A stretch of 64,000 nt of DNA, taken from contig OZ231126.1 of assembly GCA_965153355.1 (NCBI GenBank), forward strand, positions 42,718,001 through 42,782,000. Direction: 5' to 3'. A model generated the notes under the pieces. The model ran no database searches, was not told where the DNA came from, and was given only the letters and a program-made list of their open reading frames with translations. This document shows, piece after piece, positions 1,888-42,849 of the stretch (position 1 is the stretch's first letter; every line of letters starts with the position of its first letter). Origin of the DNA: Flaccisagitta enflata. Lineage: Eukaryota. Made by a program: the position numbers and the translations under genes.

Positions 1888-2306
1888 TTATGGAGGAGAA
1901 GGAGAGCCGCGGCCACGTGGGGAGCGAGATCTGGACCTTGGAGACCTGGACCTAAATCGATCATATCTGCCCTTATTACTCGGAGAAGGACTTCTCCTTC
2001 GACCGCCACCTCCTCCTCCTCTGACGGGACTGCGTCTGGGACTTCCGCCTCTACGTCCCTCGTATTCATCGTATCGTCCGCCTCCTCCGTGTCTCGGTGG
2101 CGGGGAACGACGTCGATCGCCGCGGTCACCGCGGTCACCGCCGCCCCGGTCGCTGCCTCCGCGGTCGCCGCCGCCGCTGCGCCCGCCTTTACTGCGCCCG
2201 TGACTCATCTCCACCTTAACACGAGAACCGTTAATACGAACGCCATCTAAATGACGACAAGAATCTTCCGCGTCTCGAGGATCGTCAAACTCGACGAATG
2301 CAAAAC
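1888..2306 (-). CDS. SR splicing factor (SRSF3/Rbp1-like), coding exon 2: RRM C-half, Gly/Arg linker, RS domain, stop
   Basis: Acceptor TTCAG|GT; reads (G)[36 protein letters not shown] (RNP1), then [15 protein letters not shown] at 1888-1890. No Zn knuckle, so closer to SRSF3/Rbp1 than SRSF7. Confidence 0.93.
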
Positions 2307-2329
2307 CTGAAGAGAAAAATGTCATTGTT

Positions 2330-2527
2330 TTCATCATCATAATCATCATCACCATGATCATGATCATGATCATCATCACCATGATCATCATCATGATCAT
2401 CATCACCATGATCATGATCATCATCATCGATCATGATCATCATCATGATCATCAATGATAATTTGAAATCATGATCATCATCATGATCATCATCATCATC
2501 ATCATCATCATAATCATCATCATCATC
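2330..2527. repeat. Imperfect (ATC)n/(ATG)n microsatellite in SR gene intron
   Basis: Mixed CAT/GAT triplets seen directly. Confidence 0.9.
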
Positions 2528-2620
2528 GTTTTTTGTGAATTTTAGGGTTGATTTCTTAAAATCTAGATGGGCAGTACATGCGAGAAAAAAAAATAACAAC
2601 TTCCATCTAACTCTTCCTAC

Positions 2621-2765
2621 CTGGAGGTCTTTGAGCGACCCAAACGTTGCGCAGTTGACCAAACTTGCTGAAGGGCTCCTCGATATCCCGCTCGGTCGTG
2701 CCCGGGCGGAGGTCACCAATGTAAACCTTACACTCTGGCGCCCAATTTCCATGCCGAGCGGCCAT
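2621..2765 (-). CDS. SR splicing factor, coding exon 1 (RRM N-half)
   Basis: MAARHGNWAPECKVYIGDLRPGTTERDIEEPFSKFGQLRNVWVAQRPP-G (RNP2 KVYIGDL); donor CCAG|GTAGGA is phase 1 and matches exon 2; spliced CDS 564 nt = 187 aa. Confidence 0.93.
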
Positions 2766-3089
2766 CTTTCAGGGGGATGGGTGCAGCCTAGATAGTGCAT
2801 GAAAATGTTAGGACTTCTAAAAATTTAAAATGAAAAAAAAAAGTTGAGAGAATCAAAGCAACCTTGTGTTAAAATCTAGTTAAATCGTTTTGTACACTTG
2901 TGACATGTACGAACTCTGGTACTTCCCTAGTATAGAGTATCAAATTTCAATTATATTCCATTCTATTCCTGCACAGATGAAAGGAAAATGAGTTGATACA
3001 AAGAAAACCGTCCTCAGGAAAGGAAAAGAAAGTTGACAGGCGGGGAGTTCTAAAACTGATTGTGACGAATTCGGCCTAGTGCAATTGTG

Positions 3090-3497
3090 CATACAAACGA
3101 AAGTAAAATACAAGAAGTTAACCCCCCAAAAATTGTAGCAACCCCCCTAAAGCCGCATCCACTGAATGAAAAAACGCATAAAAGATGAGGAATAGAAGCT
3201 TATGTCAATACTATGAGCCTCATCAAAGTGATTTTTGAATTTCATTTTCCCAAACAAGTTAGTTTAAAAATTAACTTTTTTTTAATTATACAAAAATACA
3301 ACATTTTATAGTTTTTTTTAGTTTTAACTTTTTACTGGGAATGAAATTCCAAAATTGCTCTGATGAGGCTAATTATATTGATATAAGCTTCAATCCGTAA
3401 TATAATATGTCTTTCTTCATTCTACAGTTAAAACTGTAGGGGGGGGGGTGTTTTGTTTTTTGGGGGTTAACTTCTTGTATTTCATTTTCGTCTGTAG
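3090..3497. mobile_element. Foldback MITE (~400 bp imperfect palindrome)
   Basis: AAATACAAGAAGTTAACCCCC is mirrored by GGGGGTTAACTTCTTGTATTT, with further mirrored internal segments; exact ends uncertain. Confidence 0.65.
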
Positions 3498-4915
3498 TGT
3501 GTCAGTGTGATCTTGTGATTTTGTGCGATTGTAAAGACCATTTTAGATCAACGACCAAAATAGGACATATTCAACTCGACAAAAACCGGAAATGAAAGAT
3601 GAAAAGATGTAAGTCGTGTGAAACAACAAGGGTCCTCTTGGTCAAACATGAGGGACATGAGCGATACGATTATCTCCGAATTTTGGGTAATCTGATTGCC
3701 AAAATGGAACAAAAAGTAACGACAGTGAAAAGAAAGATCCCGGAAATGCACACGTTTTTTGAATTTTGTGCGAAAACGCGAGAAGACTGACGGCGCATTC
3801 GGCACCCATTACATAAGCGCATGCCTCCTGAGAGTCCTAAGACACTTTCTCCTCGTCATAACAACTTCTAAGCACAGTTCCTTTATCTGTATAAACGGCT
3901 TCATGATTTTGCTTGCGTGCATACAATTGCATCCCGCTATGACGCTCACTCCGTTCGTATCGACATAACCAATCACATATTCGCGTATTTCAGGGTTATT
4001 TTGCATTACTGCCCCAGCCCATATGCCTTTCTGGTCTCGGGTACCACCGCCCAGGCGCCCACTATACCGAGTTTTGCCGTAAAAGCGGTTTAGCATTGTA
4101 TCTTGGCAAACCACAATTGCACTCAGGTTAAGATGGCTTTTTAATAACAGAATTCAAAGAGGAACACGGAAAGGAAAGGAAAAAAAAGCGGATTAAAGAC
4201 AAGTGGTGCTGTTATTTGTAATTGTTTGGTCTTGTCATTTGGACTCATTTGGTAGTGTCCAGTGATCAAACTCAATTTTGTAGTCATATGACTCATATTG
4301 TTGTCAGATGGCGGAAGGGAGTAGAAGGAGCTAGGATGTCAGATTGGTGGTAGAGTTGATGGGCCTCTTGAGCTAAGATGGTTGGGTCGTTAAGCAGAGC
4401 TGGTTGGGATGGTGTTTAGAGCTGATTGGGATGGTGGGAAGATGATGGGTAGAGCAGGTTGGGATGGTTGACTAAAATTGTTGGCTGGGACGAAACTACG
4501 TAACACGCGGCCGATGAAACTTAGGCAGAACTTTGGAGGTAGAGGGGCGCTGACGAGAAGGGATGACTGTGCTGAGCTGAGATGCCAGTAGAAGGCGGGT
4601 GGAAGAATAAATCAAGTTAGCTGATGAACGCATTCATGACACTGCTTAATGTTGGCTGAACTGAAACCATGTTGGCTGAATGATGAACAGAAGGCAGACT
4701 TTGATGGACTGAATAGAATCAAAAAAACGAAAACGTAATTAGAATCTGCTTAAAACAATGCCAATGGCAACACCTTTGTAAATAACAAAATGGAGGTATG
4801 ACGAGTACATTCATGAGCAGTGTACACACGGATCGGTGCAATTCAGACTTTTACTGAAAACCTTTGGATTTTTTCCTCGGTTCATGATGCTTGGCCGCTT
4901 ACCAATGGACCGACC

Positions 4916-5396
4916 CAGGGGCCTGAAGAGGCCTATACACCCTATACAAATTATAGGGGCCCGGGGCTAGGGGGGCCCGGAGGGCCCCCTTCAATTGTTA
5001 TAGAATTTAGAAGGAAAGGAAAGGGAAAAGGGAGAAAAGAAAAAGGGGAAAAAAAAAGAACAAAAAAAAAAAAGAAAAAAACAGAAAAAAAGGTTTGGCT
5101 CCATTGTAAACCAAGGCCCCTGAGGGAATGGTTTGCAAAACCAGGCTCTTAGCTAATAATACAAATGATGAAAACTCTTTTTAAAATACTAAAACTTTTT
5201 TTCTATTTTTGTTACAGATCAAAATACTAAGTTAAAGACTTGGATCTTCTTCTCCAAATAGAATGTAAAGACTTAAAAATAATATGTAAAAAAACTACAT
5301 GTGCTATCATTTTGGCCAGCAGTTATGCCAAAACTAAGGGGGGGGGGCCGGATTTTTGGATTGTATAGGGGCCCGAAATTTCTTTGCTGGCCCCTG
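4916..5396. mobile_element. hAT-type MITE
   Basis: TIR CAGGGGCC/GGCCCCTG; perfect 8-bp TSD GACCGACC at 4908-4915 and 5397-5404. Confidence 0.85.
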
Positions 5397-5470
5397 GACC
5401 GACCACACACGTTGTTTGGCTTCATAAAATAACGTAAGTTTAAAAATGAACGAAACACTAATGTACTTAC

Positions 5471-5812
5471 CCTAGAGGCGAAGAACAGACGCCAAAGAAT
5501 GCAATATTTCTGCTTTGTCAATAATCAACGGCTGGGTTAAAGATGGTCCGGGTAAAGACAGCGATTTATACTTGGGGAAAAAGCATCAAAAACCCAAAAG
5601 AGACAACGAATTTTGTGGATTTGTGGGGAGAGCAGGTCAGCAGGAGCAGCTCACTGCGCATGTGCATCTGCGGCTTCGCCGAGCCTTCTGCCGCTGCTGC
5701 AGCCGCCTTGTCGCGCTCAAAAAGACTCCGAACCGGCCCATCCATATTCCATTGTTAAAAGAAGTAAACTGAGTAAACGCAGAATGCACGAATTCGCGGC
5801 GATGCCAATGAG
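5471..5812. promoter_or_regulatory. Putative bidirectional promoter / first-exon region
   Basis: Consensus - strand donor (TAGG|GTAAGT at 5470) and + strand donor (ATGAG|GTGAGT at 5813) face away from a short non-repetitive, CpG-richer segment. Confidence 0.45.
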
Positions 5813-5957
5813 GTGAGTGAAGTGGCTGAGGAGGTGACTGCTGCCCGTGTCTCCAGCGCTTGCAAGCTTGGACGAATTCTTCTCCAGTTCAAAGATTGTT
5901 AATGATTCTTCGATTTTAAGTGAGGTTCTAATGCGATGATTGGTCTCTTTCCTCCCT

Positions 5958-6017
<60 letters not shown>

Positions 6018-6779
6018 AACGATTTCTAAGAACGATTTAAAGACAGACAGACCATGGAGAAAGAGGGTCCGTCGGTCGGTCGGTCGGTCGGTCTCTTTCT
6101 TAGAACGATTTCTTAGAACGATTCACAGACAGACCGAGGGAGAGAGACAGACAGACCATGGAGAAAGAGGGTCAGTCGGTCGTTCGGTCTGTCGGTGGGT
6201 CTGTTACACCTGTGCAAAAAACGCATTTCTCGACACTTTTCGACCGTGGCAGGATCTCAGACCGGATCAAGCGATGATAGACGTGTTCTGAGAAGCTCAT
6301 TCCCTCCTTCCTTACTTAAGGAGAGTTTTCCAGTCCGTCCATCTCTCCCCCCCCCTGCATTATTTCACTTACCCAGCACGCAGTTCACTAATACGCAATG
6401 ACACAGTCAGGATGTATCGTTGCCCAATCGGGCTTATTAATAGATGCGTCCGAGAACAAATCATTCTAAGAGGGTCTGTCCGTACGTCCGTCCGGCCGTC
6501 CGTTCATTCATCAGTCGGTATGTATGTATGAAAGTTGAAACAACATTCCCTTACAAAAGGAGGCCAGAATTCTCCAATTTACAAAGGATGAAAGCCTTGC
6601 AAGCTTTCAATGGTGTTTACTCCGGATTGCTCACAACTATCCCTTACCAAAGACAAACAAAAAAGATGCTTACCTGACAAAACTATCAGCTTGACTGCAT
6701 ACCTCATTAGTATAGGGTTGGACAGACCTATACCATTTAGTATACACAAAATATCTTACAAAAGTAACAATCATAAGTA

Positions 6780-27302: not shown

Positions 27303-27415
27303 CTGAAAAACAACGGACATTAGACTCTAATTTAGAGAGAAGATGAACAATCCTAAGTTGACCTCAAGAAATAAGAAATATGAATAAGAATATTTCAAAC
27401 AATTGATAGATCCAA

Positions 27416-28048
27416 TTTTGGGCAGCGGCCCCAAAGGGGACAAAGTCCTGTAGAACACAGGGGAAATCTGTCCGTCCGTCCGTTCGTCCGTCCGTCCGTC
27501 CGTCCGTCCGTCCGTCCGTCCGTCCGTCCGTCCGTCCGTCCGTCCGTCCGTCCGTCCGTCCGTCCGTCCCCCCCCGTCTGTCCGTCCGTCCCCCCCAGCC
27601 CCATCCTCAGGGCTTCGTCGCCTTTGGGGCCCAAATCCAAACTGTATGGCGCAAATCCAAGCAAAATAGCCAAAATCTAAGCGAAATGGTCCGAATCTGG
27701 TTAGAAAACCTGATTCTGGGCTGAATTCTATCATTTTAGCCCCTTAGACCTAGATTCTGACTTCTAAAACCCACATCCTAGCTTTAGAGACCCAGATTCT
27801 GGCCTCAAAGACCTAAATCCTGGCCTCAGAGACCCAAGTCCTAGCCTCAGAGACTCAAATCCTGGCCAAGTCCAAGAAATTGGTCTCTGAGACCGAACGT
27901 TGGCCCTAGGGACCCAGATCCTGGCCTGCTCCCCCCTCAACTTAACCTACAAACTACTCAAGAAGGGCACAGGTACCATTCTCCATATACTGCATTTTGT
28001 CATCTCTCCATGGGTACCGCTGACCACTTACTGCCTTTGGGCTGCTAT
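27416..28048 (+). mobile_element. Interspersed repeat with (CCGT)n, 'TTTTGGGCAGCGGCCCC' family, in 7TM intron 4
   Basis: Start shared with 9741; GGGTACCGCTGACCAC..CCTTTGGG end shared with ~43897-43927. Confidence 0.65.
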
Positions 28049-29365: not shown

Positions 29366-29571
29366 CTAAAACAATGTGTTCATTTAAGTGATAAGGCCCT
29401 CAGAAAGAGGATTGTTCACTGCTCCACCATCTGAATAAAGTAGCTCAAGCCATTGATGTTCTGAGAGGGGATGGGCCAGAGCTTCAATTCAATACTATTT
29501 TATAACACTAGCTAAATGACTGTCTGTTGACCAAAAAGGAAAGAAGCCCAACAATGCATAACATTCACTCC

Positions 29572-29760
<189 letters not shown>

Positions 29761-30889
29761 CAAAAACAATAAAAATAAAAAAAAACAAAGCAAAAAAACA
29801 AAAAACAAAAAAAAAACAAGATGCGTCTTTTCATTAATTGATGAATCAGATAAAAGAAACGATTAAAATTGTTTTCTTTCAAGACATTTTTAAAGACTTT
29901 TAAAAAAAAACTTTAATTCTAAACCAAACGTTGAAGCCCTGCAATTTGGAGGCGTCAGAGAGATCTTTTAGGAAGGGATTATGAAATGGGTAATGTTTTC
30001 ATTCAAACTACAGGGGGACCCCGCAATAACGGGCTCACTTTTAAAGGTTCCCCATTTATAAAGGTCATCATTTTAAGGTCCCAAATGACAGCTTCTTTTG
30101 TGATTTCACCTCTTTATTAAGGTAAACCTAAGATAAAGGTGAGAAATCTTCAGTCCCAATGGGACCGATTAGGTGGAGTCCTACTGTAATACCATTTCTA
30201 AGTGAAATTAGATAGCAATTCTACATTGGAGCCAAATAGAATACATTCAAAGAGCCTTGGAATGGTCTAGAATTTTGTTTAGAGATTTATTGGCACAGTC
30301 ATTCATTCAAATGTGCGTCTTTTTAGTCGCGTGCTACGCGACTCTATAAGCCACTTTGTCGGTCGGTCCGTCGGTCGGTCGGTCGGTCGGTCGGTCGGTC
30401 CGTAACAAAGTCGTTTAAAGGGTGTTTTAAACGTTTCTCAATCATTTAAAAGGGTTTTCAGGCAATTCTATAAGCCATATTTAGGTCTGTCCATCCGTCT
30501 GTCTGTTTGTCGGTCCGTCTGTTCGTCGGTCGGTCCGTCGGTCCGTCACAAAGTCGTTTTTAAGGTGTTTTGAACATTTCAGAGTCATTTCAAAGGGTTT
30601 TCAGACAATTCTGTAAGTCACTTTTAGGATTGTCCATCTGTCGGTCTGTCTGTTGGTCCATTTGTCGGTCCGTCTGTCAGTCTGTCATAAAATTGTCTGT
30701 CTGTCTGTCTGTCTGTCTGTCATAAAATTGTTTTTAAGGCTTGCGGCTTTAAGGCAAAAGTAATTATTAAAAAATTTCACTCATCTTTCAAGTGTTAAAA
30801 AAATAGACAAGTTCTGTTAAATTGTTTTCTATTTCTGTACATAACAATGAGGTTATACTAACAGGAACAACACTTTTAAAGACAAACAT

Positions 30890-31898
30890 TTAAAATAACG
30901 GAACAATACAAGGAGCAGCATGGTCAGTGTAATAGGGCCAATGATGATGAATGCTGTAATTGTTGCTTGAATTAACAAACGCATAATCTAGTACACTTCC
31001 GCTTTCATGAGTAGAATCTCTTACTAATTGTCGAAAACCAATTGAAAGTATTGAATTAATGATAGGGTGGTTATTGTTTTGATTGAAGTCAATGTTAAAG
31101 TCTCCGACAATAAAACAATTATCACAGTGACTTATCAATTGCATCAAATTTTGCAAAAAAGTTGATGTATCAGCTCCTTGAGATCGATAAACGTTGATAA
31201 CATGACAATGGTTACTTGAAAATTTTGTCATTTGAAAAAGTTTATGATTGACTTCACCAGTAAGTTTAAATCTTCTTTTATAATAGCTTGCTATGCCTTT
31301 TCCATTTCCATGATTTGTGAGATGAAGATTAAAGCCATCTATGTTCAAGTGATCATTCACATAACTATCATTGCACCAAGTTTCTTGAACACAGATCATG
31401 CTACATTTTTTAAATTTGAAATCATTTTGAAGATCATTAATTTGTTTAGGTAACGAACGAATATTCACACTGACAATAAAAGTTAATGTTCTCAAAGTCA
31501 TTTCAAGTTCATTAGTTGAGATAGATTGAAGCCTTGACAATTCTTGCATAGCTAAGGGGGAAGGGAATATCTTATTTCTTGGAACTTTTTCGATGATAAA
31601 TAATTGACTTATAGCTTGAACACGACTAAGCATGACATAGGCTTGAGCGGGTTCCCTTACAGATTTCAGATCTAAAACAAGAGAGTCCGGTTTAGAAACA
31701 GTAGCTCCCTGCATTTTATGAGCTGTACAAGCAAAACTTAGTCTGAGAGGAAATTGCAGAGCAGTAAGCATTTGACTATTGGTCTGTTTTTTTGACATAC
31801 TAAAATTGAATTCTATTTTTTCTATGGGAGTTACGGGGATACCTGGATACATGTCTTGAAGGAAAGAAAAGTTTTTTTCTCATATTCTTACCAACTTT
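30890..31898 (-). pseudogene. Helentron polyprotein C-terminal part: Pif1 helicase late motifs and APE (Exo-endo-phos) endonuclease
   Basis: QFPLRLSFACTAHKMQGAT, QAYVMLSRV; then SVNIRSL, ICVQETW, INVYRS, IVGDFN, VLDY, TDH. One extra base in the T7 run at 31872-31878. Confidence 0.92.
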
Positions 31899-32049
31899 TT
31901 AGTCGCGGACTCGCGACTCTAGAACTTGCCGCGTCGGTCGGTCGGTCGGTCGGTCGGTCGGTCGGTAACCAAAACAAAATGCGAGCGTTTTCTTGCTATT
32001 CCGCTCCTGCCCACCCGTCCGCGACTTACGGGGAGTGTATACGGCCTTG
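31899..32049 (+). mobile_element. HINE copy inserted in the Helentron helicase
   Basis: TTAGTCGCGGACTCGCGACT...(GGTC)n...ACGGCCTTG; removal restores VHFNNE-KVGKNMR. Confidence 0.92.
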
Positions 32050-34896
32050 TTCATTATTAAAATGGACTAATACAGTTTTGATGGCGCCACTTTTTGAAAA
32101 TTGAAAGCCGATTATTTTGCCAAATGCGCCATTTGTTAATGAATCAATGACATCTACATTATAAGTTAACATTACTTTGGCACCTATTTTTAGTCTAAGT
32201 TTTTTTTGAAGAGGGGTATTAAAGATATTACCATCATTTGACGTTCTTGCCTTAACATCTTTCTGTGCAGAACTTCTAACAATAGCGTCAATTTCATGAA
32301 GCTCTCCATCTAATTTCTCAAGTTTGCGTTCATTCATTTTATTCACTTGTGCATTTGTCCCAGTAACAAATAGAGCTTCAGGGGGGATACTCGGATCATT
32401 GATGTTAGGCTTGATTCTTTGATTTAGTAAATCGTAATCACTTTCAGTTTGTGAACCAGATCTGATTCTGTTCAAAACTTCTGCATAATAGAAGTCTTCT
32501 CCCTGCCTATGATTTGTAAGTAACTGAAATACTTCAAATGTGTTCCAAAGTGATTCAATATGATATGCAGCATGATAATCTTTTGATTGCGGTAAATGGA
32601 AAATGTATTTTCCCATAACGGGTTTCAATTGCAATATGTCACCAAACATTATAACTGCAATTCCTCCAAAAGGATCATTTGCATTTTCTAGGAGCTCTCT
32701 CAAACGAAGATCCATTTGATATAACATATCAGCTTTTACCATGCTAAATTCATCAATTACTATTAATTTAAGATTCTTAAGAAAATCCCTTTTTTTATCT
32801 CTCAATTTGTCGGAAAGTGAAAGAAATTCATTGCTAAAAGGAAAATTAAAAGCACTATGGAGTGTCATGCCATCAATATTTGCCGCTGCTGTGCCAGTAA
32901 ATGATAAAGGAAGAACATATGGATTATCTAAATTGTCTCCAGGCCGTCTTAGAAATTTTTCTGTCAATTGTACAATGACTTTGATTACTGAACTTTTTCC
33001 ACTACCTGCACCCCCTTGAACAATAAGTTTAGGTGCAACAAATTTAAGAGGACATTTTCGACTTATGATTATTCTCTTTAGGTACCGCATAACAACATCA
33101 ACAACCATTCTTTGATCAACATCCATTTGATGAATAAGTGGGTAAAGTTGTTCTTCAGCAAGTAAAGTCGTTGTTTTGAATAACCCAGGTGTAATAGGAG
33201 CATCATCATCATCAGTTAGACCTTCATAGTCCTTAACTTCATAATCTGGGTTGTCTAAAAGGCCAATTTCTTCACATTCCGCTTGATCTTGCTCGTTTTG
33301 TGGATCCAATTCAGCAGCAATAGTATCTCTTAGTTCCCGGGCTGCTGCCATTCCCTCCTCAACATTTTCAAGAAAAGGCATGATTTTTCTTTTTACTTTA
33401 TAAATCTCACTTGCATCATAAGTCTGTTGACAAACGTCCATATCATCCTTTTCATCAAATAAGCAGTAACTTGGACCATCTGTTACATAATTTGTATGAG
33501 GATGATACAATTGAAGTTCTGAAAAAAGATATTCATGAAGTGTTTTTGTTTTTTTAAATTTGTGGATTCTTAATACAGCCTCAGTTCTTTTTCTCATGAA
33601 ATTTGGTTCTTTTTCTTGAGTGTCTTTCAACTGAATATATTGAGGTAACTTGAAAACTTCTTGCTCATCGTCAATATTTTTAGTTATGATAATATCTTCA
33701 ACAAGGATATTTCCATTAGAATCTATTTTTTTTGCGATTTTATTACTTTTAAATTCGTGTGTTTTAGGAATTTTTCTTAGACTAGAATACCTTTTTATAA
33801 ATTGAGCATAACATAGATCTTTTAGCTCTGGTTGCAAAATGCAATCTCTTCTTAGATATTTTTCATACAAAGAAGCTTTTTCTATATATTTTCCATCTCT
33901 ACCATGAACTTCAATTGCATCACTTACATGGTCAGCAATATTATCATCAATTCTTTGTAGCATTCGACTTGGATTAAACCCAGTGGGAGCAAAAATATCT
34001 TCTATGTTGGAATATGTAAGATGCATATGAGGAAGATTTCGATAATAAGCTTCACTCTCTCCCATCTGTCGATGAGTTATGAAAACTGATTTTAGTCTTT
34101 TCATTTTTGTCCTTAACTCTTCATTTTGGGCATCTTTGAGTTCATCTAAAAGCAGTTGCATGGTCCCACTGTCATCTTTAGAATAATAATCACTTATATA
34201 AGTAATAACAGCAAAAAAGTCTAAACACAACTGAATATCCATGTTACCATTCCAAACAGACAACCATTCTGGATTATAAGTATTGACCATAGTTTCTGAA
34301 ATATCTCTTTTATAAAATGGGCGATAACCAGATCTGTTAACAGACAAAGCATTTTCATATTCTTCTAATTTAGTACTTACATCATCATGTTTAGTGATAT
34401 CAAAATCAGCATGTTCTAACAAGTGCTCAATTCTTTGTTTCACAATTAAATTCTCTTTTGAATCATAATTAGGGATAGAATCCAAAGCAGCTTTGATACT
34501 AGACAGATCAGATATACCCTCGTCAGTAAGTGTCCCGGGAGTGGAAAAGAGATGCTGCAAATCATCAGGAACATGAGAAAAATCTTTCTTTTGAAAATCT
34601 GCATTTTCTAACAAAAGATTCAGTCTATACTTCAATTTGGAAGCTTCCATACATTCATTTAACTGAATTTGTTTAAATGAGCATATTTCTTTCATTTTTT
34701 CATCATCCTCTAAAACTTCTTTCACTGCATTAATGACATTTTCATATCTGGTCATCTTTTCTTTTTTTTCATTTTCATCATCAAAAATATAGTCTGAAGG
34801 ACTGCTTATGACAGTTTTATGAATAGGAAGCTTTGGAAAGTTGAAACGGCATTGAGTACCATATTTTCTACAAGCCTTTGCAGTATGCCTGTGAAG
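32050..34896 (-). pseudogene. Helentron polyprotein middle part: Rep C-half and Pif1-family SF1 helicase
   Basis: In frame after the stop: LHRHTAKACRKYGTQCRFNFP; catalytic-Tyr motif YISDYYSK; Walker A QGGAGSGKS, FTGTAA..IDGMTLHS, IVIDEFSMV, FGDILQLKPV, TNHRQ. Confidence 0.93.
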
Positions 34897-37800
34897 TTAC
34901 ACTTCCTTCACTAAATCACTCACAGCAGGATTTCTCAAAGAAACAGAAATGGCGAGATCAGCAACCTTCTCCATTGCTTGTAAATGATGCTTACATAGTT
35001 TCTGGCAGTTTCTAATAAGGTTTTTAGCTTCAACGAAATTGGTTCTCTCAGATTGTGACAATTGGGGCATTTTTTCCCAGTCTATCCATAATACCCCATG
35101 AGCATGTGGGGCCCCTCTAAATTGAAATTCAATTCGATAATTATAGTACTTAGTAGGTAAGGGGCCCAACTTATTCACTACTATTACTCTAATGAATTCT
35201 TTTAGTCGTTGTTGAAAGTCTAGAGTTGCATTTAACAAATTTGTTTTAATCATGTTATGTTTAGAAGGATAAGCCGCTAAAAAATCATCAAGAGTTTCTC
35301 CATCTACAAATATCTTTTCTACTCCGTGTTCATTAGTATAGGTAACATCATGGCCGTCTAGAAGGGATGTAAAATTTTCATCCCATCTAGAATCAGCACA
35401 AGATAGAGTAAAGAAAAAATCAAAAGGACCAAGGTTTTCTAATTTTGCATTTAATTTATAACGAGCTTTTTGCCAATATCTTGGCGTATTTTTAATATTA
35501 TCCATAACACTTATAGCATCATCCAAATGATAAACAGTTTTTCCATCACTGTGAAGACGTTTGTTGCCCCTTTGAAAAGCAAGGCTAATGTTACTATTCA
35601 TTTGCTTTCTTTCATAATAAGCCGCATAAGCAAAATTATAGGCAGGGTCTTTGGCAAATCGAGAATCAAAATTCATAATCCTTTGAGTAATATATTGCGG
35701 TTCAGATAGACGAGTAGATCGTGGTTCATTCATATCATTTTTACCATCAGGAAAATGAGCGGGAAACGATTTTGATTCCCAATTATCAGGAAAATCTGTA
35801 GGAATTTTACCCTCTCCTGGGGCAAGAACAATCGGTTCATCTTTATCATCAGCAATAACATTGCTTTCTGCGCTTATTTCAGGGCAATTATCAGCAAAAC
35901 ATGATGAAGCATTGTAATTAAATTGAAATTTTCGGACTGTATCATTTTCTATGTATTCTTTTTCAATTTCATTTTCATTGTCTTTGTCATCTGTGTTTTC
36001 TTTATTCTTAATGATACAAGAGTCACCATTTGAAAAGAAGTTAGCAATATCGTCATCAGAAGAAATGTGGTCATCAGATGTTTCTAATCTAGTAGAGAAT
36101 GAAAAGCCTTCATTTATAGTTTCATTACATTCCTTGAAATATTCATTTGCATCTACAGAAATATCTTTGTAATAGGGATTTCCCAAATTTTTCATCGTTT
36201 CAATGGCTTTTACTATCTTGTGACAGTCAATATATTCTTGCTTGTGAGCATTTTTTAAACTTTTCATTCTCTTTAATTGAACAGGAATAATACAAGCATT
36301 AGATGGTCGTCGAGGTAGTTGCTCAATGGTATGAGATATTTCTTCTAAGGGAATTGGCACATTAACAGTTTTATCTATCATGGCATTCCATCTACTTTTT
36401 GGAAGCAATTTTATCTTTTGGAATATAAGATTTGGAGCAATCAACTGGTTTTCAACTTCTTTCAAGTCTAATTCTGGATATTCTGAAAGATCAACTAATT
36501 GCAAATTATTTTGATTTGACATGGGGGCCATTTTACCTTTGTTCTTATAACTGTTGCAAGTGTGACACATGTAATCTTTATTTTGACAATCAACGGTTCC
36601 TTGTTTCACCGGCCTAGGCATTCTTTTTCTTACAATCATTCCAATACATCTTTTTATATAATTTGGATGATCTTTTTCTAATTGTTCTTCCCAATTATCC
36701 TCTAAAGCTTTTACTCCATTTTTGAAAAGTTTGCGATGACATGAGATACAAATGTAAGTCCTTCCATCTCGAATGGCATTTGCAAATGCCATTTTTCTTT
36801 TATACACGGTGTTTAAAGTCATTTGCTTTTCTCTATTTCTTAAAATTTGCTTTTCTTTTGCTCTTTTCTGATTATATGCTTTCTTATTTTTTTGCTTGTC
36901 TTTTGTTCTTTCATCTCTTTTCTCTCTTGCTCTTTTCTGATTATATGCTTTCTTTTTTTTTTGTATTTCCCCAACTCGTCTGCTTTGCCTTCCTTGGGTT
37001 TCTGTTCTTTTGAATAGTACTTTATCTAATTGTCTTTTCCTTGCCCTTTCTAGTATTTTTTCTGCTGCTCTTTTTAGGTTAAACCTTTCCTTGTCTTTTA
37101 GCTTGTCTTTTGTTCTTTCATCTCTTTTCTCTTTTGCTCTTTTATATAATTTCTTGTCTTTTTGCTGGTCTCTTATTCTTTCATCCCTTTTTTCTTTTGC
37201 TCTTTTCTGATTATATGATTTCTTGTCTTTTTGCTGGTCTCTTGTTCTTTCATCACTTTTCTCTTTTGCTCTTTTCTGATTATATAATTCCTTGTCTTTT
37301 TGCTGGTCTCTTGTTCTTTCATCACTTTTCTCTTTGGCTCTTTTCTGATTATATAATTTTTTGTCTTTTTGCTGGTCTCTTGTTCTTTCATCACTTTTCT
37401 CTTTTGCTCTTTTCTGATTATATAACTTCTTGTCTTTTTGCTGGTCTCTTGTTCTTTCATCACTTTTCTCTTTTGCTCTTTTCTGATCATATAATTTCTT
37501 GTCTTTTTGCCTGTCTTTTTTTCTTTCATCACTTTTCTCTTTTGCTCTCTTGAGGTTGTATGCTTCCTTATTTTGTTTTTTTTCTTCCATTCGTCTGTTT
37601 TGTCTTCCAATTGTTTCTTTTTCCATAAAAAGTAACTCATCTTCTTGCCTTTCTCCTTGCCTCAATTTTCTCACTCTGAGCCTTGTATTTTCCCGCTTCT
37701 GCTCTGCAGTCTCATTCAATTCTGAAATAACATAACAATTTTTGCAAGTTATATTTTTCTTGTGATTTAGATGTGATTTAAGGGTAAAAAATTTTTGTTT

Positions 37801-38061
37801 GCATCCTCTGCATATTCTCAACCCATTCTTGTCCGTATCTTGGTCAATTCTTATCCCAACACTGACAAAGCATTCTTTTAAGCCAAAAAAGGACAAAATT
37901 TTCTTATCTTGTATGTTTTGTGTTTGTTGTTGTTGTTTTTGTTTTGTTGCTGTTGTTGTTGTCTCGGTTGTTGTTGTTTTTGTTGTTGTTTTTTGCTCTT
38001 TTGGTTCTTGTAGTTTTGGTTTCTTGCTTTGTTGTTTTGATTGTTGCTCCTCTTGATTTGT

Positions 38062-38133
<72 letters not shown>

Positions 38134-39570
38134 TGATTGTTGTTGTTTTGGTGGTTGTTGTTGTTGTTTTTGTTTTGGTTGTTGCTGCTGTTGTTTTGAT
38201 TGTTTTTGTTGTTTTTGTTGTCGTTGTTGTTGTTGTTGTTGTTTTTGTTGTTTTTGTTGTTGTTGTTGTTTTGTTTCTTGTGGTTGTTGTGGTTGTTGCT
38301 TTGTTTTTTGTGGTTGTTGTAATTCTTGTTGTTGTTGTCGTTGTTGTTGCTGTTGTTGTTGCTGTTGTTGTCGTGATGATAGTTGCTGTTGTTCTGGCAC
38401 AAAAACATCTTTAGTTTTTTCTGGTAATGAGTGATAAACTGATTTTGAGGGAACAAAAACTGCAGTGTCATCTGAATCATCTGATGATATATCAACAAGT
38501 TCAATGAAATATTTACCTTTTTTACAGTATAAAGACTTTTGTTGAGATGATTCAATGACTTGAGCTGTTTTTGTTCTACTTATTGTAATATTTGTATTTG
38601 ATTGTGCTGATGAAGATTGTGGTTGAGCCACCACATGCACGTTATCATTTGATGTCTGATTATCAATTGATATAACTTGCTCAAAAATATAGATGTAATT
38701 TTCAATAGAAAAAATGAAATCATTTTGAATTTGTTGTGGTACATTATCATCTTCACACTTGTACCATTTTCCATCATGTTCAAGTATTGAATAGTAATGG
38801 CCACTGTGTAAACTACCGCTATGATTGATCAATGCAATTAGTCTGTATGAAACATTTTGAACTTTTATTTCAAACGATCCTTTAACATAAGTATCATTTT
38901 TTTTGGGCAAGTTATTTTCGGTTTCAAATCTTAATAACTGAATAAATAGAAATGGCCCCGGCTGTGAAAAATCTGTTATTTCATGATATAATTTCGGTGG
39001 CTTATCTTGGCATGATGGCTTGCTACATTTTTTAAATCCAACACTTAGGTTGAAGTAGTTGTCCACCAGATTTTGCAGTTCTAAATAATGCGCGGGTAAT
39101 AAATGGATATGCAATGTTGTTTCAGTTGAGTAAACAGGATCTTCGACAGTGTGACAATAAAAACATGCAGGTGAAAATCTATGACCAACAAAATGGTAAG
39201 TTCTTTTGAAGGTAAATTTGAACAAATCCGATAATGATGGCATAAACTCCAACAGTGCATCTAAAAATTCCTTACAATCTTGCTGATTTCCAGAAGAAAA
39301 TGTCCTTTGATTATCACCTCTTAAATTATCAACTTCCCTTCTTAATTGAGAGGCACTAACTCTAACTTGGCTATTTTCAAAAGAAAAGATTTTATGTAAA
39401 CTAGCATGAATCAATGTTTCGTTTGAGAGAGCTGGAAGAATCTCTTTAAAAGTTTGCACTCTCCTAAGTACATTTATAATGCAGTTGGTGAAACATGCAT
39501 TCTTATCTACCCCAAAAAAAGAATTCTTTAGTAAAAGTTTTGGTATCATTTTCTTTGAATATTGACTCAC
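34897..39570 (-). pseudogene. Helentron polyprotein N-terminal part: USP (peptidase C19) domain, poly-Q, Zn-finger, 23-aa repeats, HUH Rep
   Basis: USP boxes NACFTNCIINVL, QQDCKEFL, LINHSGSLHSGHYYS..WYKCEDD; Rep motifs FFFTLSCADSRW and YRIEFQFRGAPHAHGVLW; premature TAA at 34897-34899. True start uncertain. Confidence 0.92.
36850..37570 (-). repeat. Coding tandem repeat, 69 nt / 23 aa (DKKLYNQKRAKEKSDERTRDQQK), about 10 copies
   Basis: Seen in the translation and in the DNA. Confidence 0.9.
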
Positions 39571-39614
39571 AAAAGATAGAAATGGAAATGGAAAAGACTT
39601 ACTTGCTGTAATAT

Positions 39615-41168
39615 TCAGAATGCAGAATTGATGATAGCTGCTGCAACACTTTTTGCGACAAGTTCTTGATGCTTAAAATCCACGTGAATTCCATCCTTCC
39701 AGTACAGATGTTCTTCTCTGACAAATGATTCAGAAAATCTCACTCCATGGCGCTCGCAGACAACTTCTGTGTAGCAGTTAAACATGAATGAGTCAAAATG
39801 AGCAGGAAAACGTGTCGGAGGACAGGCAAGAAAAACGATGTTACTTTTGTCGGTTTCCCGTTGTAGTTTTGTGATTATTTCTTCTTGTAAACCTCTGATA
39901 GTAGGGAGAGACTGATTGTACCGGATGTTGTTTGTCAAAGTGGCAATCACGACGATTGCATCAGTGTGGTCGTTATTCTTCATCTTATCAAGAGTCCCTT
40001 GTAGTGTGTAGGATCTCACAAAGTTTAGGTCATACTTCTCGGTTCCATCTGGTAGTTGTTCTTTGATCTTTAATCGTAGTCCGCGGTGACGTGTTTGATA
40101 GTTACTGTCACCATAGATGAAGACTCTTTTTGCTTTGTATTTGGGGAGAGAAAAACCTGCTTCAGGCGGCGGCAATTGGGCTGGTTGATGAGAAGATGGT
40201 TTAGTATGAGATTGATCAGAGAAAGGCTGTTGAGGTGGAGGAGGAGAACGAGGTTGAGAGGGTAGTTGAGAGGGTAGAGGGTGATGGGGAGTGGTGAAAC
40301 GTTGTGAGGGAGGGTGATGAAGGGGAGCATGATGAGAGGAAGCTTGTTGGGAAGAAGCTTGATGAGAGGAAGCCCCATGAGACGAGGGGTGAGTAGGGGC
40401 TTTATGAGATGAATGCATCTTGATCAATTTTGGGGAAACTGAAGGCTGAGAGTGAGAAATTGGGGCGTTCCACACATTGTGGGAGGGACTGGCCGCAGCT
40501 TTTGGTTGAGTCTTTGGTTTGACAGCAATTGGCGAATCAGTTTTGATGTAAGGAGATTCCTTGTGCTCATTTGAGTTGTACTTAGGATTGACAGCAATGT
40601 TCAATTGAGTCGCCTTTTTTGGCTGTCCCACAGTTTGCCACCCATAAGGTGGGAGTGGTGGAGGAGGAGGAACGAATTGAGGAGGAGGAGGAGGAGGAGG
40701 AGGAAGAGGAGTGGAGGGGTTGATGACATCTTTGGGCAAAGGAATTGTAGGAGCCGAGACTGGAGGAGCTTTTAGCTGAGAGTTTGATGAGGATGACAGT
40801 TTTGGCTCACTAGTGTCCGATGAGGAAGAGGGGTCTTCAGAGCATAGAATGTTGATGTCACTTTCCAATTTTTGAACTAATGAGAAAAGACTTTGAATGT
40901 GACGATTTTGTAGTTCCAATTGTTCTTTGAATTGTGCCTGTTCTTTTTCTCGTAATTTTAAAGCTGACTCGAGATTCTCAGACAGTTCAGCATTCTTTTT
41001 GATTAATTGAGCCTGGGACTTTTCAAATTGGGCTTGAGAATTTTCAAGTTCACGGACTTTATCTCTAAGTTTCTCTTGTTCACATCCAAGGTAGTAAGGG
41101 TCTTTGAGTCGCACATCCATGCTGGGGAAGATAAGATGGCGATCGTCTTTTTCTGTTTTTCCTCCCAT
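39615..41168 (-). CDS. Helentron-borne ORF1: coiled coil, Pro/Ser/His-rich linker, SGNH/GDSL hydrolase domain
   Basis: Heptad-rich N-terminus; VFIYGDSN (block I Ser), IATLTNN (block III-like), KDGIH (DxxH). Likely ATG at 41168, after a polypyrimidine-AG; open frame extends to 41273. Confidence 0.8.
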   Translation of the reverse strand: MGGKTEKDDRHLIFPSMDVRLKDPYYLGCEQEKLRDKVRELENSQAQFEKSQAQLIKKNAELSENLESALKLREKEQAQFKEQLELQNRHIQSLFSLVQKLESDINILCSEDPSSSSDTSEPKLSSSSNSQLKAPPVSAPTIPLPKDVINPSTPLPPPPPPPPQFVPPPPPLPPYGWQTVGQPKKATQLNIAVNPKYNSNEHKESPYIKTDSPIAVKPKTQPKAAASPSHNVWNAPISHSQPSVSPKLIKMHSSHKAPTHPSSHGASSHQASSQQASSHHAPLHHPPSQRFTTPHHPLPSQLPSQPRSPPPPQQPFSDQSHTKPSSHQPAQLPPPEAGFSLPKYKAKRVFIYGDSNYQTRHRGLRLKIKEQLPDGTEKYDLNFVRSYTLQGTLDKMKNNDHTDAIVVIATLTNNIRYNQSLPTIRGLQEEIITKLQRETDKSNIVFLACPPTRFPAHFDSFMFNCYTEVVCERHGVRFSESFVREEHLYWKDGIHVDFKHQELVAKSVAAAIINSAF

Positions 41169-41597
41169 TTTAAAGCTTGATCTCATTAAAATGAGACAGC
41201 AATAAAAGAAAGAAATTTTATCAAGATTGTATGAGTAGTTTTTTACATTTTCGTAGATATTGATGGGGTACACAGTTAAAGAAGAAAGTTTAGTTCAGGG
41301 AGAATTATGATAGAATATTGGAGATGTATTAGAATATTGGAGAAGATTTTTTTTAATTTTTGAAGAGTTGAATAGAAATGTTGGAGAGATGTGATAAGCA
41401 TGTTGGAATTGTGGTGAATGAACGAAAATCAGAGTGCTCTTCCATATAAGCTGAGACGGAGCCAGTTCAAGCCAGTTACAGCCAGTTACAGCAGGTTCAT
41501 GCCAAAGAGCAAAAAACATGCGGAAAAATTGACCACTGCTTTTCACACCTGCCACATGGAATCTCGATCAGAGAGATGGGGTGGAAGGGGGGGGTAA

Positions 41598-42310
<713 letters not shown>

Positions 42311-42849
42311 AAATTCTTCCATTGGCAGTAGAGACAGAGTCAGCTCGAGCCAGTTACAGCCAGTTTAAGCTAGATTATAATAAAGTGCTAAAAATAGACA
42401 AAGACAAACTTGACCGCTTCTTTTAAACTGGTCATTTTGAGAGGTGAAAGAGTTTGCGCACCTCCCAGCTGCAAAATATCCAAAATCGACTGGGGGGGGG
42501 AGAGAAAAGAGAGAAAGTAGTCATGCCTCCAATCGATCATTTTCAGGAAAAATGGAATGTTTTTTGATCATGCCGCCCCTCGCCAAAAGAAACTCACCAT
42601 GGCAACAATTTCAGATGAAATACAAGTGGAAGGGGGGGGGGCGGAGAAACTGAGCAAGATTGTTTTACTCAGGGCAAACGAATGCATGGACCATCATTAC
42701 CAGCCAATTTCAGGAAAAACGTTATTCCTTTGACAATGCCGCCATCACAACAATGCCACCATCACAACAATTTTCAGATGAAAAAGAAATGGTGGAAAAG
42801 AGGGGGCGGGAATTATTTCACTCACAGCTAGTTATCATCAAAATAAATG

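Follow-up and report, generated by a model that had tools for sequence, protein, structure and literature searches.

The window analysed here is a stretch of 64,000 nucleotides from Flaccisagitta enflata (contig OZ231126.1, positions 42,718,001 to 42,782,000), and the feature under study is a transposable element on its minus strand whose transposase begins with a ubiquitin-specific protease (USP; UCH, peptidase C19) domain. Between 34900 and 39672 the minus strand holds one stop-to-stop frame with 1591 open codons (standard code; the DNA is about 34% GC), the first ATG of which is at 39547-39549. The domains of the element follow in the order USP, a linker of poly-Gln and Lys/Glu-rich repeats, DUF6570, Rep (HUH), Pif1 helicase and AP endonuclease (EN); their positions are collected in Table 1. 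The Rep part contains the sequence PHAHGVLW, which we take to be the HUH motif. Directly past the TAA that closes the 1591-codon frame, a stretch of 956 codons in the same frame contains the remainder of Rep and the Pif1-type helicase, and the C-terminus of the helicase and the AP-type endonuclease are found on a frame of 329 codons beyond an interruption at about 31880-32040. Full-length relatives (P0155, P0173 and P0188) were colinear with the element throughout in tblastn comparisons. Both parts of RepHel, the HUH Rep domain (PF14214) and the Pif1-type helicase (PF05970), were matched, and since an AP-type endonuclease is present the element is a Helentron (HLE2), with a transposase that begins with a USP domain. 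No VTD or OTU domain was detected in the element by Pfam scans, and no convincing terminal pair was found by an inverted-repeat scan of 29900-42600. An earlier note, made from the letters of this DNA, had placed USP and Rep in a single uninterrupted open reading frame (ORF). This holds as far as the HUH part of Rep (residues 1364-1528), but the TAA cuts off the rest of Rep and the helicase.

The USP domain had been proposed from six short motifs, KNACFTN, QQD, CFYC, CSKPSC, HSGSLHSGHY and WYKCEDD, each of which was found at its place on the minus strand. Chance does not come near to explaining such a set: the match of frame residues 57-316 to Pfam family UCH (PF00443) scored 80.1 bits, the cut-off being 23.9 (E 2.5e-22). 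A phmmer search of PDB sequences aligned the window domain, His box included, with USP15 (E 1.1e-08), USP21 and Ubp8. An alignment of 52 sequences, consisting of the window domain and its closest full-length matches (A1), was used as a profile against the PDB. Its match to USP2 (E 7.3e-55) brought the Cys and His boxes of the two into register: 'LkN..NlCflN' stood opposite 'GLRN-LGNTCFMN', 'GHYta' opposite 'GHYTA' and 'kcdDskv' opposite 'TFNDSSV'. The AlphaFold model obtained with A1 had a pLDDT of 95.7 and a pTM of 0.91, and Foldseek matched it to 451 PDB chains at E<=1e-3 (best E 6.6e-21). The top matches listed were all USP-family chains, led by USP2, USP21, USP30 and USP46 with TM scores of 0.74-0.78, at identities of merely 16-21% in the structural alignments. 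The match to a USP fold that was looked for by profile and by structure prediction was thus obtained by both, and together with the recurrence of the domain in relatives, described below, it is virtually certain that the window encodes a real USP-fold domain.

Residue numbers in the following are those of the frame unless given from the Met. The candidate catalytic Cys60 (Cys19 from the Met) has an equivalent in nine of the ten Helentron-linked USP domains, i.e. in all that cover the position, P0187 being without the N-terminal part, and the candidate catalytic His292 was at least 90% conserved in A1. In the alignments both fall on catalytic residues of USPs with solved structures. The oxyanion-hole candidate, Asn50, is separated from the catalytic Cys by an insertion of 4-8 residues relative to USP2 that is specific to the family. 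A QQD box starts at Q130 of the frame, and the four Cys of the zinc ribbon (C129, C132, C175 and C180 from the Met) were invariant or at least 90% conserved in A1. In the HMMER alignment with USP15, 'ceddn' stands opposite 'FDDSS', which puts Glu at the third of the 'critical' positions and Asp next to it, at the fourth. The suggestion that a Cys, His and Asp triad is retained was therefore only partly upheld: Cys and His are aligned, but the Asp that is retained occupies the fourth position and the canonical third is Glu in the alignments with both USP15 and USP2. Of the ten Helentron-linked USP domains, those of the window, P0004 and P0114 have E at the third position and the remaining seven have D or N; the D at the fourth is invariant. 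Glu is therefore a lineage trait and not a product of decay in the window copy. The Cys, the QQD box, the CxxC pairs, GHY and the fourth Asp were retained among USP domains just 24-40% identical. According to Keijzer et al. (PMC10867860), Asp accounts for 46.4% of human USPs at the third position, Asn for 44.6% and Ser for 5.4%, Gln being found solely in the inactive USP39, and at the fourth position Asp accounts for 96.4%; USP1, USP15, USP40 and USP48 cannot do without the fourth residue but can do without the third. Because these four enzymes need the fourth and not the third residue, the Glu-Asp pair, though unusual, appears by analogy compatible with activity.

Table 1. Features of the Helentron and its upstream neighbour in the window, in transcriptional order of the minus strand.
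Feature	Position	Strand	Basis
Separate upstream ORF: N-terminal coiled-coil-like part, Pro/Ser/His-rich middle, C-terminal SGNH/GDSL-like part of about 170 aa	39615..41186	-	translation
USP/UCH (peptidase C19) domain, first ATG to about residue 335	38668..39549	-	Pfam, AlphaFold, Foldseek, profile against PDB
Candidate oxyanion-hole Asn50 (in LKN)	39523..39525	-	profile alignment with USP2
Candidate catalytic Cys60 (Cys box KNACFTN)	39493..39495	-	aligned with the NTCFMN Cys of USP2
Fingers zinc-ribbon Cys, C170/C173 (CFYC) and C216/C221 (CSKPSC)	39010..39165	-	A1
Candidate catalytic His292, GHY of His box HSGSLHSGHY	38797..38799	-	aligned with GHY of USP15, USP21 and USP2
Glu307-Asp308, third and fourth 'critical' positions, in WYKCEDD	38749..38754	-	HMMER alignment with USP15
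Poly-Gln linker, (CAA/CAG)n, about 151 triplets	37924..38371	-	sequence, repeat scan
Eleven tandem 69-nt (23-aa) Lys/Glu-rich repeats between USP and DUF6570	36822..37574	-	TRF
DUF6570 (PF20209), residues 1045-1175	36148..36540	-	Pfam, E 5.2e-09, 37.1 bits against cut-off 24.3
N-terminal part of Rep (Helitron_like_N) with PHAHGVLW, residues 1364-1528	35089..35583	-	Pfam PF14214, E 6.6e-16
In-frame TAA splitting Rep	34897..34899	-	sequence
Rest of Rep and Pif1-type helicase (PIF1 match about 32494-33027)	32029..34896	-	Pfam PF05970, E 8.1e-24
Very high-copy repeat insertion with (CCGA)n run, breaking the helicase and shifting the frame	31880..32040	-	sequence, tblastn, depth
Helicase C-terminus and AP (EEP) endonuclease (about 30968-31471)	30893..31879	-	Exo_endo_phos E 1.1e-09, Exo_endo_phos_2 E 2.1e-06

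The DUF6570 match in Table 1 came from a separate Pfam scan of frame residues 1000-1250. The window copy of the element is defective, with one premature stop inside Rep and one repeat insertion in the helicase. The TAA truncates Rep ahead of the tyrosine motif and the helicase, and the relative P0155 reads through at this position without a stop. Across the insertion the frame changes from -2 to -1 in tblastn comparisons with full-length relatives, and the summed depth of contigs there was about 1e5 compared with a few thousand in the adjoining bins. The possibility that this interval is an intron was considered and rejected, as its sequence, its depth and the change of frame favour a repeat insertion. 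In and just after the USP domain, eight sites at which contigs differ from the window were found (among the 40 of 837 variable sites listed), defined as sites where all covering contigs differ from the window in at least one DNA run. Four of these were synonymous and four non-synonymous, a split that bears only on the decay of the window copy.

Relatives were collected with the Rep part (residues 1050-1591), which matched 149 proteins at E<=1e-5; the counts that follow refer to the 120 of these that were listed. In the precomputed Pfam column seven carried PF00443 and seven OTU (PF02338). By our own Pfam scan the USP was N-terminal to Helitron_like_N in the same protein in all seven USP-bearing relatives, with DUF6570 between the two in four of them, and the Rep parts of the seven were 35-47% identical to that of the window. 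The in-frame fusion of a USP to a rolling-circle (Helitron-type) transposase, which the earlier note had read from the window, is thus found in the same arrangement elsewhere. A C-terminal EN was matched by Pfam in P0188 and P0234, and the C-terminus of P0173 aligned with the EN region of the window. A local USP profile made from A1 recovered the same seven relatives and no others among those listed. Many relatives are cut by short contigs; the nearest, P0155, lies on a contig of 5.9 kb and reaches just 63 residues beyond the N-terminal side of the Rep query region. P0114 combines UCH and DUF6570 in one protein. When a further ten long relatives were scanned, OTU was at or above threshold in P0208 and P0238 and below threshold in P0221, and among related marine Helentrons OTU and USP occur in the same N-terminal place. 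The only named match, P0004, is an 'uncharacterized protein' of 1138 aa from the crinoid Antedon mediterranea. By BLASTP it is colinear with the window protein through the USP, a zinc-finger-like stretch, Lys/Glu-rich repeats and DUF6570, where the gene model ends. As a similar repeat array is present in the window linker and in this Antedon relative, the Lys/Glu-rich repeats are a conserved feature.

A Rep tree of 117 rows was built with FastTree after four of 121 rows with fewer than 300 query residues covered had been dropped. Six of the eight USP-bearing rows fell in one clade of 35 rows that includes the window (support 99), and the USP label required two changes on the tree compared with a mean of 5.2 after shuffling (1 of 500 shuffles was as low). 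Eight rows of this clade extend 600 residues or more upstream of Rep, and six of them have the USP. Copy number was estimated from contig pieces at least 90% identical to the element in two DNA runs of the source organism. In run X1, 9103 contig pieces fell on the element, 1113 at >=99%, 2673 at 95-99% and 5317 at 90-95% identity, and depth was 2271-4948 in the USP bins versus 3497-6533 in the Rep and helicase bins. The closest short USP matches were fragments in ENA on contigs of 0.5-2.7 kb; ENA protein fragments were 71-91% identical to the USP part, one of them frameshifted. No relatives came up when metagenome contigs were scanned with the USP part and, separately, with the Rep part. A domain confined to one copy, an outcome that the earlier note had set against its own proposal, is not what was observed, since the USP occurs in many copies of the source organism and in distant relatives. 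From the relatives, the Rep tree, the colinearity with the crinoid protein and the copy number, we conclude that the USP is an old, inherited part of this Helentron lineage, and it is very likely an integral part of the element family.

A quick IQ-TREE analysis of 46 USP domains addressed the origin of the domain. All ten Helentron-linked USPs fell on one side of 32 rows (SH-aLRT 89), together with 22 unnamed short fragments, and the other side of 14 rows consisted of multidomain USPs (Ank-USP, DUSP-USP, USP-ubiquitin and USP-caspase). Within the 32 rows the Helentron-linked labels were interspersed with the fragments, with seven changes compared with 9.2 after shuffling, and 28 of 500 shuffles were as low. 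The sister pairs P0186/P0188 and P0187/P0190 were common to the USP and Rep trees. These placements are compatible with a single ancient acquisition of the USP, and USP domains may also have been exchanged among Helentrons. The long, high-scoring USP matches were considered as further Helentrons and rejected, as they are tandem multi-USP proteins: in 25 that were scanned, DUF6570 was found in one and Helitron_like_N in none. Six proteins (P0006, P0007, P0008, P0038, P0103 and P0153) have 966-3205 aa and 3-10 tandem USP domains without a link to Helitrons, and P0037 combines a USP and a caspase domain in one protein.

Directly upstream of the USP frame lies a separate ORF (Table 1). Its C-terminus gave weak matches, to Pfam Lipase_GDSL_2 at E 0.15 and, with an Atlas feature value of 0.94-0.95, to GDSL-like clusters from molluscs, annelids and cnidarians, and its layout is reminiscent of the esterase-bearing ORF1 of CR1-type LINEs (long interspersed elements). 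It may be an accessory ORF of the Helentron. The ORF was multi-copy in runs X1 and X3, but in the marine metagenome run X2 its depth was far below that of the USP-Rep part, and any linkage to the Helentron is thus tentative. Splicing of this ORF onto the USP frame was rejected, the stop of the ORF lying ahead of the only GTAAGT. A very high-copy (CCGA/GTCG)n-like repeat is present at 30485-30731, at 31880-32040 and at about 27400-27600, one fragment of which is that interrupting the helicase. Its summed contig depth was 1e5 to 4.6e5 versus a few thousand for the Helentron, and no Rfam match to it was found. Poly-A RNA reads within the examined stretch were almost confined to this repeat; in the portion read of one RNA run (about 6 in 100) they fell almost only on 30500-30870, with none in the USP bins. 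A long (CA/TG)n microsatellite at 29512-29912 lies just outside the 3' side of the element.

The presence of a USP on HLE2/Helentron elements is already in print. HELIANO (Li et al., NAR 2024, PMC11417382) names UCH (PF00443) as one of 20 further domains with a stable presence in Helitron-like elements. There UCH is reported almost solely from HLE2, with enrichment in subgroups c and d, whose members come for the most part from lungfish and axolotl, and EN is reported as enriched in HLE2 subgroup b; DUF6570 is given as an HLE2-specific marker domain, and UCH is counted among 17 domains 'encoded in different ORFs'. The window element agrees with these UCH-bearing HLE2 elements in having UCH upstream of RepHel and together with DUF6570. 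It differs from that description in that the USP is in one frame with DUF6570 and Rep, and, unlike the subgroup split reported there, USP and EN occur together in the window element, P0188, P0234 and P0173. Beyond HELIANO, no description of a Helitron-linked USP and no biochemistry on one was found in the full-text literature, excluding most subscription journals and Repbase reports. What is added here is modest: the same-frame arrangement of USP with DUF6570 and Rep, observed in the window, seven ENA proteins, P0114 and P0004; the combination of USP and EN within a single element; a Glu in the third place of the active site; and the alternation of USP and OTU among close relatives.

A second known system is provided by Helentrons with herpes tegument-like VTD or OTU domains (Erven et al., Nat Commun 2022, PMC9741609). 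In that study Helentron VTDs were reactive towards ubiquitin probes and hydrolysed ubiquitin chains linked through K48, K63 and K11 in vitro, OTU domains were noted beside the VTD or in its place in Helitron-type elements, and the proposed role is protection of proteins needed for transposition. As in those elements, a papain-fold cysteine deubiquitinase (DUB) is encoded in the ORF of an endonuclease-bearing Helentron. Unlike the VTD and OTU described in that work, the DUB of the window is of the USP class, with a predicted fingers-palm-thumb fold and a zinc ribbon, and is known here from sequence. With cellular USPs of the USP2/USP21/USP15/USP8 type it shares the fold and the set of motifs, and these gave the best sequence and structure matches; the loop insertion before the Cys and the Glu at the third position set it apart from them, and it is fused to a transposase where cellular USPs have targeting domains.

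Overall, the best explanation is that the USP is an N-terminal isopeptidase domain travelling on the Helentron (HLE2) transposase, which we consider fairly likely, and it is probable that the domain is catalytically active in intact copies. In such copies the USP would be an active isopeptidase carried on the transposase itself (about 2900 residues) and, by virtue of this location, would act wherever the transposase is. There, on the model with the best support, it would strip ubiquitin or a ubiquitin-like modifier in cis or near-cis, either from the transposase or from host proteins at the site of transposition, and such deubiquitination could avert proteasomal removal or ubiquitin-dependent restriction of the transposase or of the host factors that it needs. 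A role of this kind, in stabilisation or anti-restriction, is put forward by analogy and tentatively, somewhat on the doubtful side. The earlier note had suggested that the domain could protect the transposase from degradation or take ubiquitin marks off chromatin or repair sites, and either may apply. Several observations weigh against the reading as a whole. The window copy cannot make the full transposase. The USP evolves faster than the rest of the protein, being 36-42% identical between P0004 and the window compared with about 75% for DUF6570, and 24% identical between P0188 and the window compared with 35% for RepHel. The deeper branching order of the USP and Rep trees disagrees. In P0165 and P0168, which are N-terminally long and belong to the clade of the window, no USP was found by Pfam or the local profile. 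Finally, Glu307 at the canonical third position is a variant without a counterpart among human USPs (PMC10867860).

Some of these points could be explained by a USP that is catalytically dead or weakened and is kept as a ubiquitin-binding or scaffolding module, for example to bring the transposase to ubiquitinated chromatin or PCNA. The Glu shared by the window, P0004 and P0114, for which the same survey of human USPs gives no parallel (PMC10867860), the insertion of 4-8 residues before the catalytic Cys relative to USP2, and the rapid divergence of the domain would all fit such a module. However, very divergent members have all retained the Cys, the His, the oxyanion Asn and the fourth Asp, which would be unexpected if the domain only bound ubiquitin; the third residue is Asp or Asn in the rest of the Helentron USPs, and it is dispensable in USP1, USP15, USP40 and USP48 (PMC10867860). 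A dead or weakened domain is therefore unlikely, though it deserves more weight than the other two alternatives. One of these is self-processing, with the USP as a protease that releases USP, Rep-helicase and endonuclease pieces from the polyprotein. Polyprotein processing was among the roles offered in the earlier note, and the unusually long frame with its low-complexity linkers would suit it, as would the observation, noted by Erven et al., that viral papain-like DUBs are often also polyprotein proteases (PMC9741609). Pfam found no ubiquitin-like domain in residues 346-1058. USPs cut after a C-terminal Gly-Gly, and the 1591-aa frame is without a single Gly-Gly; only two are present in the continuation, both within helicase motifs. 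For this reason self-processing is disfavoured and appears very improbable.

The other alternative is that a fragment of a host gene was captured by, or came to adjoin, one copy of the element and is neutral, without a role for it. Helitron-like elements do capture pieces of host genes, the window copy is already broken, and the assignment of UCH to 'different ORFs' in the HELIANO text (PMC11417382) would agree with such an origin. Against this, the N-terminal USP is in frame with RepHel in seven of seven USP-bearing relatives whose Rep has diverged as far as given above, the crinoid protein is colinear with that of the window, the USP region is present in many copies and its depth is similar to that of Rep, the catalytic motifs are retained, and the ten Helentron-linked USPs stand apart from the multidomain USPs in the tree (support 89). 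A neutral host fragment is hardly to be credited.

With an isopeptidase travelling on the transposase as the preferred explanation, the window family would add a third DUB class at the same position and on the same polypeptide as the rolling-circle transposase, plus an endonuclease. Of the Helentron DUBs, the VTD version is so far the one characterised by biochemistry. It is conceivable, if still short of likely, that Helentrons have an N-terminal 'deubiquitinase slot' that was filled at least three times by unrelated cysteine DUBs, namely OTU, VTD and, in this lineage of marine invertebrates, a USP of a Cys-His-Glu(+Asp) variant. If this is true, removal of ubiquitin would be a near-requirement for Helentron transposition rather than an accident of gene capture, and the Cys-His-Glu(+Asp) arrangement would be a natural USP active site in a configuration absent from human USPs. 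There is also a consequence for annotation: a 'USP-like' gene model in a marine invertebrate genome may in fact be a piece of a transposon, as with the Antedon protein. A comparison of USP-, OTU- and VTD-bearing Helentrons could reveal whether ubiquitination is a means by which hosts restrain these elements.

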